Source: Eledone cirrhosa
Lineage: Eukaryota
Reading direction: 5' to 3'
Assembly (NCBI GenBank): GCA_964016885.1
Contig: OZ024740.1
Coordinates: 326,988,001-327,052,000, forward strand
Length of the DNA: 64,000 nucleotides
The stretch's first letter is position 1; every line of letters starts with the position of its first letter. The position numbers and the translations under genes were made by a program. Under the pieces are notes generated by a model, which saw only the letters and a program-made list of their open reading frames with translations, searched no databases and was not told where the DNA came from. Positions 5,050 to 61,993 of the stretch are shown here, in pieces.

Positions 5050-5575
5050 AATATGTTAGCTTATTTGGAAGCTCGACAACATATTTTGCTGCATATAGTT
5101 ATGACCCTTTACGTTCTGAGTTCAAATCCCCCTAAGGTTAGCTTTCCCTTTTATCCTTACGCGGTCGATAACATACAGTATTGGGGTCGAAATAATCAAA
5201 TTTCCTCTCCCCCCCAAAAGTTGTTAGCTTTGTGTCTAAATCAGAAACCATTATATGTCTGCTCGACGTCCCTTTATGATCTGGGTTCAAATCCCGCTGA
5301 GGTTAGCTTTGCCTTTCATCCTTTCGGGGTCGATAAAATAAAGCACCAGTAATGCACCGGGGTCGATTTAATCGACTTTCCCATCCCCCAAAATTACTGG
5401 CCTTGTGCCTATAGTAGAAATCATTATATGTCTGATCGTTCAAATCCTGCTGAAGTCAATTTTGCCTGACATCCTTCTAGAGTTAATGAAATATAGTACC
5501 AGTCACTTACTGGGGCCAATGTAATTGACTTCCCCTCTCCCTGGGTTGCTCGCATTATGCCTAAATTAGAAACGA
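5050..5575 (+). mobile_element. Cluster of three decayed copies of the dominant tRNA-derived SINE
   Basis: Repeated B-box gttcaaatcc plus tttgcctttcatcctt..ggggtcgataaaataaag..ccag and ggccttgtgcc..agtagaaa at about 5050-5250, 5270-5425 and 5437-5575. Confidence 0.8.
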
Positions 5576-5787
5576 ATATATTTATGCTCAATCAAGGTTT
5601 ATCGGGAACTAAACATCGACAACAAGCTTCACTTGGGTTCATCTTTTAATTGGAAGAGCCTTTTGTTATGATCACGAAGCGTCCATTATTTCATACCTTC
5701 ATTCCAGAGTTTTAGTTAATATCACAGCATTGTGAATACGATCGACCACAATTGTTTGTTTGTTTGTTACTTTCTTTCTTTCTTTCA

Positions 5788-5954
<167 letters not shown>

Positions 5955-6139
5955 GATACATCTACCAAAATATACGGTAGTGTCCAATCCATATGAAGAA
6001 CTCAATGTAATCCGAATATCATGAAAAGAGAAGATGCATTCAAACATTTTCGATGAAATTCATAGGAAAACGGAGTCAAGATAAATTAATAAAACAATGA
6101 AATAAAAACAAAGAACAAGTTCCTTATATTAAAAGATTC

Positions 6140-6269
6140 ATCATTTTACGATCGTTTCTAGGATGTATATGTGTGTTGGTATGTATATCATAGATCTATG
6201 TAAAAATATTACAAATTATCAGAGGAAATATACATACCTTCACATAGACATGCTGTCTTCAGAAATGAT
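6140..6269 (-). ncRNA. Type I hammerhead, mirror copy of 6270-6403
   Basis: tcttcag at 6256-62, tttc at 6155-58, atcattt-ta-cgatcg at 6140-54. Confidence 0.72.
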
Positions 6270-6403
6270 CATCATTTCTGAAGACAGCATATATATGGGA
6301 AGGTATGTATATTTCCTCTGATAATTTGTAATATTTTTACATAGATCTATATGATATACATACCAACACACATATACATCCTAGAAACGATCGTAAAATG
6401 ATG
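6270..6403 (+). ncRNA. Type I hammerhead ribozyme with 99-nt stem II extension
   Basis: catcattt CTGAAGA(6278-84) [6285-6383] GAAA(6384-87) cgatcg TA aaatgatg; stem I 8-9 bp; palindromic stem III ACGATCGT. Confidence 0.75.
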
Positions 6404-6480
6404 AATCTTTTAATATAAGGAACTTGTTCTTTGTTTTTATTTCATTGTTTTTATTAATTTATATATATATATATATATAT

Positions 6481-6541
6481 AGTGCTTCCAATCTACTGTA
6501 AAACTCATTCTTTGATGTACTCATTGAATCTTGTTTACCTC

Positions 6542-6546: not shown

Positions 6547-6601
<55 letters not shown>

Positions 6602-6647
6602 AGGAAAAGCGAAGTAGTTTCAGATGTTTAAGTCCTTTAATAATAAT

Positions 6648-6721
6648 ACTGTGATATCTATTTCAATGACGACACTGGCCACACTGTTCTGCGTGCGAGT
6701 GTCGTGTCATCATCAGACAGC
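6648..6721 (-). ncRNA. Type I hammerhead ribozyme
   Basis: gctgt CTGATGA tgacacgacact..agtgtcgtcatt GAAA tagata TC acagt. Confidence 0.75.
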
Positions 6722-7958
6722 TTGTTACATAATAAGGTTATGTTTCCGAGGCAATCCAAATTGAATCGACATGGGAACGGATGAAGTTCGTGCTTTTGGG
6801 TTTTTTATCCGTTCCCTTGTGAGTACCAATTCATCCCCACCGGTCTGCGCAAGCGCATGTCCGAAGGAAGTTGACCATTAGCCACCGCAGATTTCACCGA
6901 AATTCGCTGCCAGTTCACCCTCTCAACCAAAACAATGGCCCACCTGTGCCCTACCAAAGTTTACTGCTACCCATCACGACTGTGGCAGTCAGCCGAAAGC
7001 CAGAGGGGGTGGGAGGGTGTTAGTTTTTATAGGTCATAATACTACCTTTCACTAAGCGTTGACAGCAAGACTGACCATCAACTCATAAGGGAAAATAAAC
7101 TTAATTCTAGGTACCATGGTTTTACATTGGAAGTTAAGAGTGAGAGTTGGAAATAAAAATTAAAAATTAAAATCCTAAATCAAATATCAGAGATTATAAA
7201 TTAAACAATTAAAAAATTAAAAAATTAAAAAATTCGAAATTCAAAAATGTTTCAAGTGATAATTCGGATTGAGTAAAAATATAGATTGAAGTGAGTAAAT
7301 AATATGGAGAGAGATGTTTAAGTAATAAGTTCTGAGAGGGATTCTAGTGTCACAGTTACTCTATCCACATATTGAACGACAGTGCCGTACATTATAACGG
7401 AGGGCAAACTACAGGGTTCAAGGCATTACTCAATCTGGTACAGTCATAATTTCCATCACATGGTACAAGATCAAAGAAAAACAGACATAAAGTACACAAA
7501 AGAAAAGAAAAGAACAGAACCAATAGTGAATAAATGCAAAAACACAGAGTACATATATGCAAAATGATCCATATGATTGTCCATCTGTCCATGTATAGAT
7601 TGAATTGAGGGGGCTTCTGTTCAAATGCGATTTGGTGCAGGAAAATAGGGGTTTATCTTATTTTTTGTTTCCGCGTATTTATCCTGCCGAAAGTTACTAT
7701 TATGCCCGTCCAGTGTCAGGGGTTTTCATCCCCATGGTAGAGGGAATTTCCGGGGTAGCTCTTGGTTGGTTCCTCTCTTCTCCACCATATCGGTTACATC
7801 ATAGAGCGCTCAACTAATTGGAGCTAAATTATTAGGGTAAACATTGATGCAATTCAATTCAAGCACTCAACGTACTTTTTCCACATAGGAGTGACGGAGT
7901 AAATATCGAATAAGGAAAAGCGAAGTAGTTTCAGATGTTCAAGTCCTTTAATAATAAT

Positions 7959-8032
7959 GCTGTGATATATATTTCAATGACGACACTGGCCACACTGTTC
8001 TGTGTGCGAGTATCGTGTCATCATCAGACAGC
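7959..8032 (-). ncRNA. Type I hammerhead ribozyme
   Basis: gctgt CTGATGA tgacacgatact..agtgtcgtcatt GAAA tatata TC acagc; perfect 5-bp stem I, palindromic stem III. Confidence 0.82.
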
Positions 8033-8165
8033 TTGTTACATAATAAGGTTATGTTTCCGAGGCAATCCAAATTGAATCGACATGGGAACGGATTAAGTTC
8101 GTGCTTTTGGGTTTTTCATCCGTTCCCTTGTGAGTACCAATTCACCCTGTATATATATATATATA

Positions 8166-47493: not shown

Positions 47494-49525
47494 TTCTGTT
47501 CCCTACTCTTGGATGACAGAAGCCCTCCGACTTGCTAAAGTCCCAGACATCATTATCAGAGCCATAGAGAAGCTGTCTTCTTCTTGGGATATTATCCTAA
47601 AGTTAAAGACAGAGAAGGAGGTCTCTATTTTCACTGATAAAATAAAATATCGCAGGGGTATATTTCAGGGAGACAGTCTCTCTGTGATACTATTCATCCT
47701 ATCGTTAAACTCCTTGTACTTTCTGCTCAAGAAATGTGAAGGATAGATCATTGGCTCACAGGAGGACAGAAATACGAACCTAACACATAATTTATTTGTG
47801 GTTGATCTGAAACTCATGGATGGGATGAAGAAAAATCTTGACCTGGTTACAGCATTCTCAAAGGATATAGGAATGGAGTTTGGCCAAGATAAATGCTCAT
47901 ATATTACTGTAAAGCGGGGGAAAACAACAACCAATCTAGCAACATTTGTATCAATGGCCTAACTGTTTCACCAATATCTGATGAGGACTGCTACAGATAC
48001 CTGGGGATAGATGAGAACATATCCTATAATGGTATCTGTAATAAGGAACGCGTAACCAGGGAATACTACACCCGATTAAGAAAGATCTGGTCATCGGAAC
48101 TCTCTGCGCAAAATAAAACAGTGGCTCACAATGTGTTTGCTGTGCCTGTCCTAACACTAACTTTTGGAATCCTCAATTGGACGATAGACGAAATCCGAGC
48201 GATTTATGTTAGAACTCGAAAAATACTAAACAAGACCGCCTTTACTTGAAACGTAAGCAGAGAGGCAGAGGCCTAACATCAGTCCAGACAGCATTTGAAT
48301 GTCGCATCATATCCCTCCGACAACATCTACGAACCTCGAAGCGTAGGAGCCCGTCTCTCGAGCAAGTCTATCTGCATGAAACAGATAAGATCATGAGAGT
48401 TGGGAAGGAACTCCTCGTGAGGTATTCCCTGTGTGATAATCAAAAACTCACACCCAGGGAAGTTGCTCAGCAGTATCGCAGTGAATCCATGGATGAAAAA
48501 CTACATGCTTATCAGCAAAAAATCATGCATGAATATGTTGCCAGGAAGCTCCAGAGTGAGAGTAATATAGATAAAGAAAGTAGTCTATCTTGGACCAACA
48601 ACCGCTATATTGGCTCCCACTTTGAAGGATACGCTTTTGCAATCCAAGAACAGGAAATCAACACGAAATACCTGATTCACAAAAGAGCTAGGGATGCAGG
48701 CAAACACCTAGATGTGATAACAAGTGCAGACTTTGCAGAATTAACATCGAAGATGTCACCCATGTCATCAGCAGCTGTCCAAAGATGTCATCGCAGTACT
48801 ATCTACCTATGAGGCATGATATAGTGACCAAAACACTGTACAATGCAATCCGTAGAAAAGATAGCCCCGATGCATTAAAAGCTACAGCAATGTGGAAGAC
48901 ATATATAATATGGAAAAGTACTGGTGGAATGTCCCAGTAAAAACCCTAATAAAAGGCAGGCATAACAGACCAGATATTATGATATGGGACAGGGAAAAGA
49001 AAGCATGCACAGTAGTGGAAATTAGCTGCCCATCATATGCCAATATAATATCAAAGATTAGCGAAAACGAGAATATTTATACAGAACTGATGAGAAATCT
49101 GCAGATACTGCACCCTGATTATACCTTCAGATTTATGCCTATGATTATTGGGGCACTGGGATATGTTAGTAACTGCCTCAATACAAATCTTGAGAAGCTG
49201 GGCTTCACAGGAAGAGAAACAACATAACTAGTTAGGAAATTACAAGTACAATCCATTAATGGAACAGTAAAAATATGTAAAACATTCCAAAAATTTTGCA
49301 TCTAATAACTGCATATACACATGTACAGATACAAAGCATATTCACATACAACTCAAAACATCCACATCCACACATACAATAACATCCATATCTATACAGG
49401 CATGCATGCAGACATATCTACCTAGTTGATGTTGTGTAAATTCCAATGAGAGAGTCTTGTGTCTATGTTAGAAACCGACTCTCTCTCTATTGGCAAAAAT
49501 TTGTGAAATTATAAAACCAGAAGAA
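47494..49525 (+). mobile_element. 5'-truncated R4/Dong-type non-LTR retrotransposon (RT plus restriction-like endonuclease), pseudogenised
   Basis: SVPYSW, RRGIFQGDSLS..LFIL, HNLFVVDLKL, YRYLGI, AIQEQEINTK, CRLC..EDVTHVISSC..RHD, RPDIMIWD..VVEISCP; stops and frameshifts; ACAT repeats on both flanks. Confidence 0.9.
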
Positions 49526-55898: not shown

Positions 55899-56569
55899 AT
55901 AATAATAATAATAATGATGATAATAATAATAATAACAATAATAATAATTGTTATTGTTATTATTTTTGTATAAATAAATGAATAAATAAATAAATGTAAA
56001 AGAAATATGTACAGAGTGGGTTTCGTGTAATAAGATTTTTTTTTTATCGATTTCAGATAATACCAATATGGAAAGTAGAAATACGACGCACACACACACA
56101 CGCACATCTACACAAACAAACAAATAAACACGCTCACACTCATCTACACATACGCACACATAAACACACACATTCACACATATCTACACACAGACACAAA
56201 TATATAAATAAATATATATATATATATATATACATAAATACACAAACACATATATACACAAACACACATACATACTTAAGCAGATAATAAATAGGCACAC
56301 ACACACACACATACTTATACAATAAACATTACACATGTACATACGTATGTATGAAATAAACACATGCATACATCCAGTTATGCAGGCAATAAATATAACC
56401 ATATACACCTTTATGCCTACAATAAATGCACATACATGCATCATTGTGCACACAACACATTTATAAACACACACAAACCCACATATTTATACACACATAC
56501 AAACACAAATATTCATACACACATATAAACAAACACACATTTTAATATACATATACAATCAAACATATC

Positions 56570-58040
56570 TATACATACAAACACTTATATTCATACATAC
56601 ATACAAACACTTATATTCATACACACACACATACAAACACACATATTCATACATACAAACACTTATATTCATACATACAAACAAACATATTCATACACAC
56701 ACACATACAAACAAATTCATACATACATACAAACACTTATATTCATACATACATACAAACAAACATATTCATACACACATACAAACAAACATATTCATAC
56801 ATACATACAAACACTTATATTCATACATACATACAAACAAACATATTCATACACACATACAAACAAACATATTCATACATACAAACAAACATATTCATAC
56901 ACACATACAAACAAACATATTCATACACACATACAAACAATCATATTCATACATACATACAAACACTTATATTCATACATACAAACAAACATATTCATAC
57001 ACACATACAAACAAACATATTCATACATACATACAAACAAACATATTCATACATACAAACAAACAAACATATTCATACACACACACATACAAACATATTC
57101 ATACATACATACAAACAATCATATTCATACACACATACAAACACTTATATTCATACATACATACAAACAAACATATTTATACACACATACAAACAAACAT
57201 ATTCATACACACATACAAACAATCATATTCATACACACACACATACAAACATATTCATACATACATACAAACAATCATATTCATACACACATACAAACAC
57301 TTATATTCATACATACATACAAACAAACATATTCATACACACATACAAACAAACATATTCATACACACATACAAACAATCATATTCATACACACATACAA
57401 ACACTTATATTCATACATACATACAAACAAACATATTCATACACACATACAAACAAACATATTCATACACACATACAAACAATCATATTCATACACACAT
57501 ACAAACACTTATATTCATACATACATACAAACAAACATATTCATACACACATACAAACAAACATATTCATACATACATACAAACACTTATATTCATACAT
57601 ACATACAAACAAACATATTCATACACACATACAAACACTTATATTCATACATACATACAGACAAACATATTCATACATACATACAAACAAACATATTCAT
57701 ACACACATACAAACAAACATATTCATACACACATACAAACAAACATATTCATACATACAAACAAACATATTCATACACACATACAAACAAACATATTCAT
57801 ACACACATACAAACAAACATATTCATACATACAAACAAACATATTCATACACACATACAAACAAACATATTCATACACACATACAAACAAACATATTCAT
57901 ACACACATACAAACACTTATATTCATACACACATACATACAAACATATTCATACATACATACAAACACTTATATTCATACACACATACAAACACTTATAT
58001 TCATACACACATACATACAAACATATTCATACATACATAC
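56570..58040. repeat. Minisatellite, ~22-28 bp unit (ACAAACAAACATATTCATACACAC-like)
   Basis: Dozens of tandem variant units. Confidence 0.92.
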
Positions 58041-58286
58041 ATTGACATATTCCCCAACTCAGACAGACATTTACAAGTACACACATACACTGACTCATTC
58101 ATAAACACACACACACATAAATATACACACATATATATATAACTATGCATAAAACACAAAAGAAAACCCTGTATTCGCCATCCCCACCATCACCCCTCCC
58201 CCCAAACAATCAAACAAGAATGAAATGTTATAAAAAAAAAACCTTATCGAGGCAAAAAGACAGTCATATATTAAGTCGCCATATAG

Positions 58287-58324
58287 CATCATCATTATCA
58301 TCATCATCATCATCATTGTCGTCG

Positions 58325-58367
<43 letters not shown>

Positions 58368-58636
58368 TATCACTGTCATCGACATTCTTATCGTCATCCT
58401 CCTCCTCATCACCAACCCCAAAGTCGTCGTCGTCATTCGGAGTGTCATTGTCATTGTCATTGGTATCATGGGCATCATGATCGTCATCATCATCATCATC
58501 ATCATCATCATCGTCATTGTCATCATCATCATCATCGTCATCGTCATCATCATCGTCAGCGTCATCGTCATCATCATCATCATCATCATCGTCGTCGTCG
58601 TCGTCGTCATCATTTTCATCATCATTGTCATCGTCG

Positions 58637-58674
<38 letters not shown>

Positions 58675-58750
58675 GTAATTCTCATCATCATCATCATCCC
58701 TTCATCATCATTGTTGTTGTCGTCATCATCATCATCATCATCATCATCGT
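58287..58750. repeat. Imperfect (CAT)n/(CGT)n trinucleotide repeat
   Basis: Visible directly; produces poly-M/I/S pseudo-ORFs. Confidence 0.95.
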
Positions 58751-60673
58751 AATCAACATCATTCTCCCCTTTCGTCGTCGTTATTATCAGTGTCATATTC
58801 TTCGCCATCACTACCATCGTCTTCCAAAAAGAAAAGATGACATATTGATTAATGTCGTTCCATATACAATACGTTATAAAAATGGAATCGTCGCGGCTGG
58901 AATGCATCTCGTTATAGGACTACTTGGTTAGAATTAATCAGAGCTGAATAACAATCAGGTTATAGACAACAGTCGTTTCTTACAAGAGAAACCTTGATAA
59001 AAATGTCTGCCTTTGTGTTGTATCTATTACTGATTGACTGGGTAAGAAGTTTATAGGTAAAACTCTCGATAATCGTATGCCTATAGAAAAATCTTTTTAA
59101 ATATCGCTTTTTCAAACCAGATATACTTCAGGCCTAAGTTATCTTATATTCTATATTCTCTTCACCAAGTAGTTATCTATTAACCATCGCTCAACCTTCA
59201 ACATTATACACGTGTCCATCACCGCCAGCACATATATTTCCTCGCTCAACTTTAAATCCTTCCGGTAACCATCCCCAAACGAGCTCTTTAAATGCTCTTG
59301 CAATTAAGACCTGATAATTTAATGTTTCACCCGTACTAAAATGCAGACTTCACGTAGTCAAATAAAATAGATTCACACCACTATTTCTTTTCTCAGAGCT
59401 AAAGCCAACATTATTTAATAATGTTAAACCAAACATCATTTCCAAACAAAAATGGTGTCAAACATTTTGGGTTTGAATCTTTAGAACTAAGAAAGCTTTT
59501 TCAACAAGATTGTCAGATGCACTCAGCATTAAAGCATTGCTCATAAATTTACGATGATGACTTTCGTATGCAGCCCTCACCTCAACACATGCATTCTAAA
59601 TAGTACCAGAGAAAAATTTAGGAACCAGTTTTGGTGAAAATTTTATTGACTAATTCTATCCAATAATTCACCTGTCTATTCTTTCTGTATTTTCCACTAT
59701 AGTCAGCGATCTTTTAGTTGTTAAAGATGAATATCAAACAATGTAAACATCTGTAATTTACAGACACCATCCACATGAAAAACAATCGTTAAGCTTGTGT
59801 AAATATCTTGAATACATAAAGTTTTAAACAGCCAACTAGATATAAATAAGAAGAGAAAAAGCAATATTTTTCAGCAAGTTTAGAAAATCTCAGAGGGGTT
59901 TCAGTTTTGCTCCATAGACTTCTGCATGTAAGAGCACGGCTATGTTACGAAGATTAGGCCAGAATAAGACAAAAATATATCTTAATATATCTTCCATATT
60001 TGGCAGAAAATAACAAAAACTAAAATTAGACGTTGACAAATAGATGTTTTTCTGTCATCAGACATTCATTTCTAGTTAGATTTTTGTTAGTCCATGCATT
60101 AACTACATTAACGTTAATTTACCTGGGGTAATACATAATTCAACTCTGGAAATTTGCTATGAAATGATTATAATTTCTTTTCGTGCTTTTAGAGTAACTT
60201 ATAGCTACTAATGATTTCTGTAAGGAAACCACATCTTGAGGTCGGACGGACATATTGCCAAAGGGCGAACTCTAAATGTTCTGCAACTGAGGCAGAATGC
60301 AATTATGGTCGAAATCAATGACTTACGGTTGACTGATATTTCTGTCGCTAAATTCAGCCATTAACCTAAACTTATATCAGTATATTATATATGTTGTTTA
60401 CGAGGTACGATAAGAGGTAGAAACAGAATACGTAATTATTTAGTTAGATTTCTTTACGTTCAAATTCTAGTCTAGTCCAAGAGGATTTCTATTTTCTAGC
60501 AATCCAGCAGGGATTTATTCAGTTTATCATATAATTGGTTCTAGCGAGTGGGCTATCACCACGCTTGAGAGCCACGCACGTACCACACACACATCACACG
60601 CATACACAGAAACAGAGACACCCCCTCTCTCTATATATATATAGGTATGTATGCACAAACACACACACACACA

Positions 60674-61993
<1,320 letters not shown>

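Follow-up and report, generated by a model that had tools for sequence, protein, structure and literature searches.

A long inverted repeat of Eledone cirrhosa that carries a hammerhead ribozyme motif on each strand raises the question of how such a structure arises and whether the two ribozymes serve a purpose together. It lies in the window, the stretch of 64,000 nucleotides analysed here (contig OZ024740.1, positions 326,988,001 to 327,052,000). From its sequence it is an insertion of about 514 bp (about nt 5950–6463), in which two 5′-truncated pLTR copies of a Hydra-clade Penelope-like element (PLE) stand head to head within a (TA)n microsatellite. The palindrome is a dead, protein-less by-product, and nothing sets the locus apart within its family; the finding resides in the family's ribozyme and junction statistics, rather than in a single locus.

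Alignment of nt 6271–6463 with the reverse complement of nt 6081–6269 gives three substitutions and two small indels, which bears out the near-perfect arms of about 190 bp recognised in a preliminary description made from the sequence alone. That description placed the symmetry axis 8 nt upstream of the core, and rightly so, since the axis base is C6270 and the core starts at nt 6278. Its limits, nt 6081–6462, hold for the arms and overlook the tail of about 130 nt by which the left arm extends to about nt 5950, so that the insertion is asymmetric. The core and insert that it saw on both strands are present, with an insert of 99 nt, as described, on the plus strand and of 97 nt, not 99, on the minus strand. 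The features are collected in Table 1.

Table 1. Features of the head-to-head insertion and its flanks (window coordinates; hammerheads and cuts are predicted).
Feature	Position	Strand	Basis or detail
(TA)n target microsatellite, left flank	5919–5951	none	Sequence; (TA)n is the target of most family copies seen
PLE tail, about 130 nt, left arm only	5950–6080	−	Matches L031 3830–4160 (96%) and L082 (84%)
Left arm, 3′ part of pLTR starting at the −7 A (6269)	6081–6269	−	Arm comparison
Left hammerhead motif, predicted	6138–6269	−	Core 6262–6256; 97-nt stem II 6255–6159; G12 6158; A17 6147, predicted cut after 6147; stem I 3′ strand 6146–6138
Axis base C6270	6270–6270	none	Ambiguous: either a minus-strand G that may derive from a cap, or the native C(−8) of the plus strand
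Right arm, 3′ part of pLTR from the −7 A (6271) to the usual element 3′ end (start site A)	6271–6463	+	
Right hammerhead motif, predicted	6269–6404	+	Stem I 6269–6277 with 6396–6404 (9 bp); core CTGAAGA 6278–6284; GAAA 6384–6387; 2-bp palindromic stem III 6387–6394; predicted cut after A6395; 6384–6395 reads GAAACGATCGTA
Stem II hairpin, 99 nt	6285–6383	+	Folding and family covariation
(TA)n target microsatellite, right flank	6462–6481	none	Sequence

The tail would be the stretch between two start sites of reverse transcription, A and B, and in full elements runs on into the 5′ UTR. That the palindrome arose in assembly is unlikely: the arms differ, the tail is one-sided, the assembly holds 941 such junctions with varied fillers, and two raw reads of another sample contain a sister subfamily's junction in head-to-head arrangement.

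Elsewhere in the window, a direct repeat of 248 nt (nt 6589–6836 and 7900–8147, 96% identical) adjoins (TA)n and is probably the end of another mobile element. Open frames at nt 48213–49227 and 60569–61654 resemble, by eye, protein fragments of non-LTR retrotransposons, and nt 56467–58931 hold about 1.6 kb of a CATA-type repeat followed by 0.7 kb of an ATC repeat, with extreme strand skew.

The family to which the arms belong is young and abundant. A search of the 3.0-Gb assembly with the right arm gave 1,545 candidate matches, of which the 40 that were scored are 95–98% identical to it, and the 3′ half of the core occurs 14,874 times. Four near-identical copies with identical flanks, about 27–28 kb apart (L010–L013; G000:C4:352.18–352.27 Mb), reflect either the tandem duplication of a larger segment or a repeat in the assembly. 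Copies of the pLTR were located at the 3′ end of a retroelement open reading frame. Locus L082 is a natural intact copy, with a frame of 817 amino acids and a sense hammerhead in both pLTRs. Its protein carries RWR, SDKTG (DKT), YRDD, CxCX5C (CNCRNKANC), CxxC (CRLC) and CxH (CNH), and its C-terminal GIY-YIG-type region, with a YIGAT..R motif, agrees by eye with the blocks of the published Hydra alignment. Pfam detected GIY-YIG weakly (E 0.014) on a fragment and gave zero matches on the whole L082 frame. Residues of about 480–590, following the RT thumb, form a low-complexity stretch rich in N, K and T that varies between copies and recalls the N-rich inserts reported for rotifer PLEs (PMC3846280).

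On motifs, target and hammerheads, the parent is assigned to the Hydra-clade PLEs. With that clade (PMC8557442) it shares a single frame that couples RT to an endonuclease of GIY-YIG type at its C-terminus, DKT in place of DKG, RWK (here as the RWR variant), the CxCX5C linker, CxxC and CxH around the E and N, and insertion into (TA)n. It also shares the sense pLTR hammerhead, the mismatch at the base of stem II seen in many members, the inverted 5′-truncated copy and the tail. The family differs in its length, about 4.6 kb between the L082 hammerheads against less than 3 kb, which is a tendency of the clade and non-diagnostic, and in its tail, about 130 nt against 30–40 nt (PMC8557442). Two other assignments were rejected. 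Hydra-1_Obim has a clearly different protein, judged by eye, and a short hammerhead; non-LTR retrozymes are head-to-tail tandems of non-coding units, each with a hammerhead, whereas the pair here stands head to head and comes from an autonomous PLE. No relative emerged from a scan of metagenomes. Four runs bearing the labels of other organisms yielded contigs with pieces of the family, among them a head-to-head loose end; these pieces are short and of uncertain source and were left out of the evidence.

The hammerhead was then considered as a motif of the family. Units were collected by a search that took only inserts of about 85–130 nt with a core-like pattern, and within that range all 207 distinct units, from five subfamilies, have a stem II insert of 90–126 nt. 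They show the type I core CUGANGA, GAAA and NUH (A or U at H17), and the 3–8 pair is kept in 207 of 207, as C-G in 179, U-A in 27 and U-G in one. Within each subfamily 96–100% of the cells of stem I and 85–100% of those of proximal stem II are paired. Sliding the register by 1–3 lowers the pairing of both stems, and repeats hold some slid registers at 0.8–0.9. Between subfamilies, both sides changed in three columns of stem I and in eight of stem II, one by way of C-G, U-G and U-A; the stem II figure refers to end-anchored columns, some of which are paired indels, among five subfamilies that are related to one another. Stem I and proximal stem II covary, covariation in stem II having been proposed as a check in the preliminary description. 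In subfamily C (2,841 candidate matches; loci L136, L154 and L169–L198) the C3-G8 core is replaced by U3-A8 and stem I is fully re-paired. Stem III, with 2 palindromic and nearly invariant base pairs, is uninformative for covariation.

The 99-nt stem II opens with a C-A mismatch, followed by 2 bp, a C-C mismatch, about 11 bp, an internal loop, about 12 bp and an apical branch. The self-pairing of the insert, claimed earlier, is supported by folding: both inserts form long hairpins (z −3.4 and −4.3), and none of 200 shuffles was equally stable. The best explanation, from comparison of the copies, treats the hammerhead as a regular cis element of the family, with a stem II of about 100 nt that selection has kept. 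In published Hydra-clade motifs stem and loop together take about 11–24 nt, and the longest tabulated stem II, about 52 nt in PLE-X1_sMoe, is flagged as deviant (PMC8557442). Metazoan PLE minimal type I hammerheads (PMC4209133) share with the present motif the core, a short palindromic stem III implying dimer action and the U3-A8 variant, which is also known from Schistosoma PLEs. Their "larger than usual" helix II has 7–8 bp and a conserved G10.1-C11.1, whereas here a multi-segment hairpin of about 100 nt opens with C-A. This C-A occupies 10.1–11.1, in place of the usual G10.1-C11.1, in 206 of 207 units; U-U is common there among published Hydra motifs (PMC8557442). Standard searches miss the motif, as had been anticipated: Rfam gave zero matches at gathering thresholds and, with the limit relaxed to E 10, zero hammerheads and only generic hairpin models that fell far short of their cut-offs, and the published core descriptor has a spacer of 7–17 nt (PMC8557442).

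Activity is predicted to be weak, with cutting only as a dimer or with the help of a protein. This expectation follows from the C-A at 10.1–11.1, the C-C two pairs on, the 2-bp palindromic stem III and the low activity measured for motifs of this kind. For the motif alone, the free fold is predicted to be better than the hammerhead fold by 1.7 kcal/mol. With one sense hammerhead on each strand and a 2-bp palindromic stem III, the dimer fold thought to be necessary would be impossible in cis. The idea that a read-through RNA forms a rod hiding the ribozyme gains support as a prediction: the whole palindrome RNA folds into a rod of −275.5 kcal/mol against −133.6 kcal/mol with the hammerhead enforced, a gap of 142 kcal/mol, and the rod would silence the hammerhead within the palindrome.

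Whether the pair itself is of use has to be weighed here. A selected ambisense ribozyme cassette, or a hairpin-RNA gene, could be imagined at this locus, since the full core stands on both strands and a read-through RNA would be a duplex of about 190 bp that might feed small-RNA silencing. We give this next to no credence. The locus is one among at least 941 equivalent junctions, private changes break stem II pairs in both window arms, the promoter-like upstream part is not retained, and each strand holds a single sense motif. A special role for ribozymes on both strands is not supported, the ambisense pair being a by-product of head-to-head cDNA joining seen at 941 loci.

The position of the axis, for which the preliminary description offered no explanation, is the most informative feature of the locus. 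Genome-wide, 941 head-to-head junctions lie at −7, the base 7 nt before the core, and the reversed-pattern control gave 0. Of the control sites, whose patterns span different sets of subfamilies, the cleavage site gave 20 junctions, the CCAAT box 5 and the interior of stem II 3. The stop keeps its position in 25 junctions of subfamily C, whose sequence differs. Single copies give a similar picture. Among the first 100 core matches on C1, the 5′ end falls between −20 and 0 in 42 (mode −7), at or beyond −400 in 31, between these in 13 and inside in 14; boundaries were called only approximately where flanks are AT-rich, and poorly in subfamily C. In six of the 42, native sequence continues beyond a SINE-like insertion, which leaves 36. 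All 7 representatives, drawn from subfamilies A, AB, B, C and D, have a CCAAT box in reverse orientation at −64 to −92 and an AATAAA at −19 to −21. In some subfamilies, CCAAT-to-core repeats recur in the 3′ UTR and are probably relics of partial tandems; decayed upstream examples at L082:2230–2420 (minus strand) and L087:5980–6090 end in a tiny hairpin.

Three causes of the stop were rejected. The ribozyme cleavage site is not the main truncation point (20 against 941 junctions, and 9 against 101 solo copies), and copies starting near it are in small excess only. A splice acceptor is not indicated, since there is no native AG at −7. Stalling of reverse transcriptase on the hairpin is rejected by reasoning, as all helices have already been passed at −7.

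The bases joined to the stop bear on its nature. Among solos that are flanked by (TA)n and joined out of phase with it (100 of 101 listed), −8 is G in 42, A in 25, C in 19 and T in 14, as read by eye; G occurs at −9 in 2 and at −10 in 5 of the same 100 (Fisher p 1e-16). At least 106 of 107 copies natively have a base other than G at −8. Solos starting at the cleavage site carry the G in 0 of 9, a small control. The pattern used selects out-of-phase junctions, and a further 276 (TA)n-flanked solos join in phase without an extra base, so that most such solos lack the G (276 in phase against 42 with G). In subfamily C it is found in 1 of 4 solos. Palindrome arms carry G in 269 cases and another base in 532; by our own count about half of the G-bearing arms listed (47 of 100), that of the window among them, may instead reflect the native C of the partner arm. 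Both arms bear G at 8 of 92 listed loci. In raw reads of another sample the loose-end consensus likewise reads (TA)n-G. An untemplated G at the 5′ junction of full-length L1 and SVA insertions has been attributed to the cap (PMC3287187), and the G at −8 is likely the same known trace of a reverse-transcribed cap.

If −7 were instead a site at which DNA is broken or nicked, by the element's own or another endonuclease, the cDNAs would have been cut there and no RNA end need be assumed. A PLE protein prefers ATT in its own pLTR (PMC11167929). The 3′ end of a SINE-like repeat is joined precisely to the −7 base of the pLTR at up to 576 sites (for instance L199–L218, L087:6326–6400 and L118); the first 100 joins listed are all at −7, and none falls at a look-alike 11-mer with 908 occurrences. 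We nevertheless regard a nick as very unlikely, because a cut does not produce an untemplated G, subfamily C uses the same position despite its different sequence, and open chromatin at a start site would presumably attract insertions as well.

The SINE-like insertions deserve mention in their own right. At 20 fetched loci the duplications measure 3–18 nt and the 5′ ends mostly differ, so that the events are mostly independent; double insertions are present, and sometimes the two pLTRs of one element carry different insertions. The combination of the SINE-like 3′ end with a following ATTATTT is very frequent. Ordinary hot-spot insertion fits these joins, as does template switching from a stopped cDNA. 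In the window, nt 5120–5590 hold three decayed SINE-like copies in tandem that are akin by eye to the inserter at −7.

The fixed stop, the excess of untemplated G and the reverse CCAAT box at −64 to −92 together argue for the start of a capped RNA. We consider it probable that both ends of a (TA)n cut were primed on uncleaved, capped sense RNA and that the two cDNAs reached its 5′ end and were joined. The RNA would start, capped, at the −7 A within the upstream pLTR. The element's protein would nick both strands of (TA)n and prime at the internal sites A and B, each cDNA would run to the capped 5′ end, and the two ends would be joined by microhomology or filler; one-sided events would yield solos. 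In L1, twin priming produces an inversion through two priming events joined by microhomology. Whereas the outcome there is an inversion with deletion, here both cDNAs would copy one 5′-terminal region and give a palindrome.

Two priming sites are supported by complete palindromes, of which 23 of 24 combine an arm that stops at site A with one whose tail reaches site B; four further rows are incomplete calls, among them the window's, where the tail was established separately. Arm similarity gives additional support: in 19 of 22 palindromes no other sampled copy is nearer to an arm than the partner arm is. The window's palindrome is among the three exceptions: its arms differ by 4 changes from each other and by 2–3 from other copies, which counts against this origin. 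At L038, L096 and L100 the junctions hold repeated short fillers, two or three re-copied pieces of 12–14 nt from the 5′-terminal sequence, which resemble templated end-joining insertions or repeated jumps of the reverse transcriptase. The in vitro work on the Poseidon PLE PAc fits well, since the purified protein cuts and extends both strands, uses uncleaved RNA and initiates at two internal positions that delimit the tail (PMC11167929). Poseidon belongs to another clade, and the excerpted text of that paper mentions neither a genomic head-to-head stop site nor a cap signature. In D. virilis, Penelope has an internal promoter with a start well upstream of the hammerhead (PMC2377424), and this counts against a capped start at −7.

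Two other routes to a palindrome compete with double priming. Alternatively, a single cDNA primed at B may reach the RNA 5′ end, snap back and copy itself, with the endonuclease trimming the second arm at A. Such a fold-back would suit the identical arms of 9 of 22 palindromes and the rare variants common to both arms, and the tail has been ascribed to endonuclease resolution (PMC8557442). Many junctions, on the other hand, are loopless or have a spacer of 1 nt, G on both arms is not readily given by it, solos in (TA)n with the same start do not need it, and in vitro both strands are extended (PMC11167929); we judge it unlikely. The published proposal for head-to-head PLE junctions is self-priming by antisense RNA, given as the best reading of rotifer palindromes (PMC3846280), and antisense RNA could come from palindromic copies. 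Since it predicts neither a fixed stop at −7, nor an untemplated G of the sense strand, nor solos starting at −7, we find it highly improbable for this family.

Priming from both ends on capped sense RNA does not account for long copies, because sequence upstream of −7 is kept: 10 of 10 ORF-bearing copies with an upstream hammerhead retain native sequence 5′ of it. These would need another template, that is, a circle, a read-through RNA or strand transfer. Tentatively, and with doubt prevailing, the family may replicate in an LTR-like manner not described before, in which target-primed synthesis would begin near the capped 5′ end, and the resulting short strong-stop cDNA over the giant hammerhead would jump to the RNA 3′ end and regenerate the pLTR. 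The conserved AATAAA at −21 would put that 3′ end a few bases past −7. Jumps that failed or were diverted would then have left the palindromes, the solos and the SINE captures at −7, and the stem II of 100 nt might be a protein-binding handle that gates cleavage.

Head-to-head pLTRs of PLEs, tails, opposite-strand hammerhead pairs (reported 100–700 bp apart in PMC4209133) and the U3-A8 core are already known (PMC8557442, PMC4209133, PMC3846280). The hammerhead with a stem II of 90–126 nt and the fixed stop at −7 with an untemplated G look new; within a partial coverage of the literature, no prior report of a stem II of about 100 nt or a cap-marked stop in PLEs was found. The formation of inverted junctions and the rebuilding of the pLTR have been stated as open questions for PLEs (PMC3846280, PMC2377424). 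A family of about 14,900 copies with a base-exact stop and a cap-like G offers a sharp test between twin priming on a sense template and antisense self-priming. The covariation of a stem II of about 100 nt also implies that searches by descriptor and by Rfam undercount PLE ribozymes, and some elements credited with half a core may hide one.
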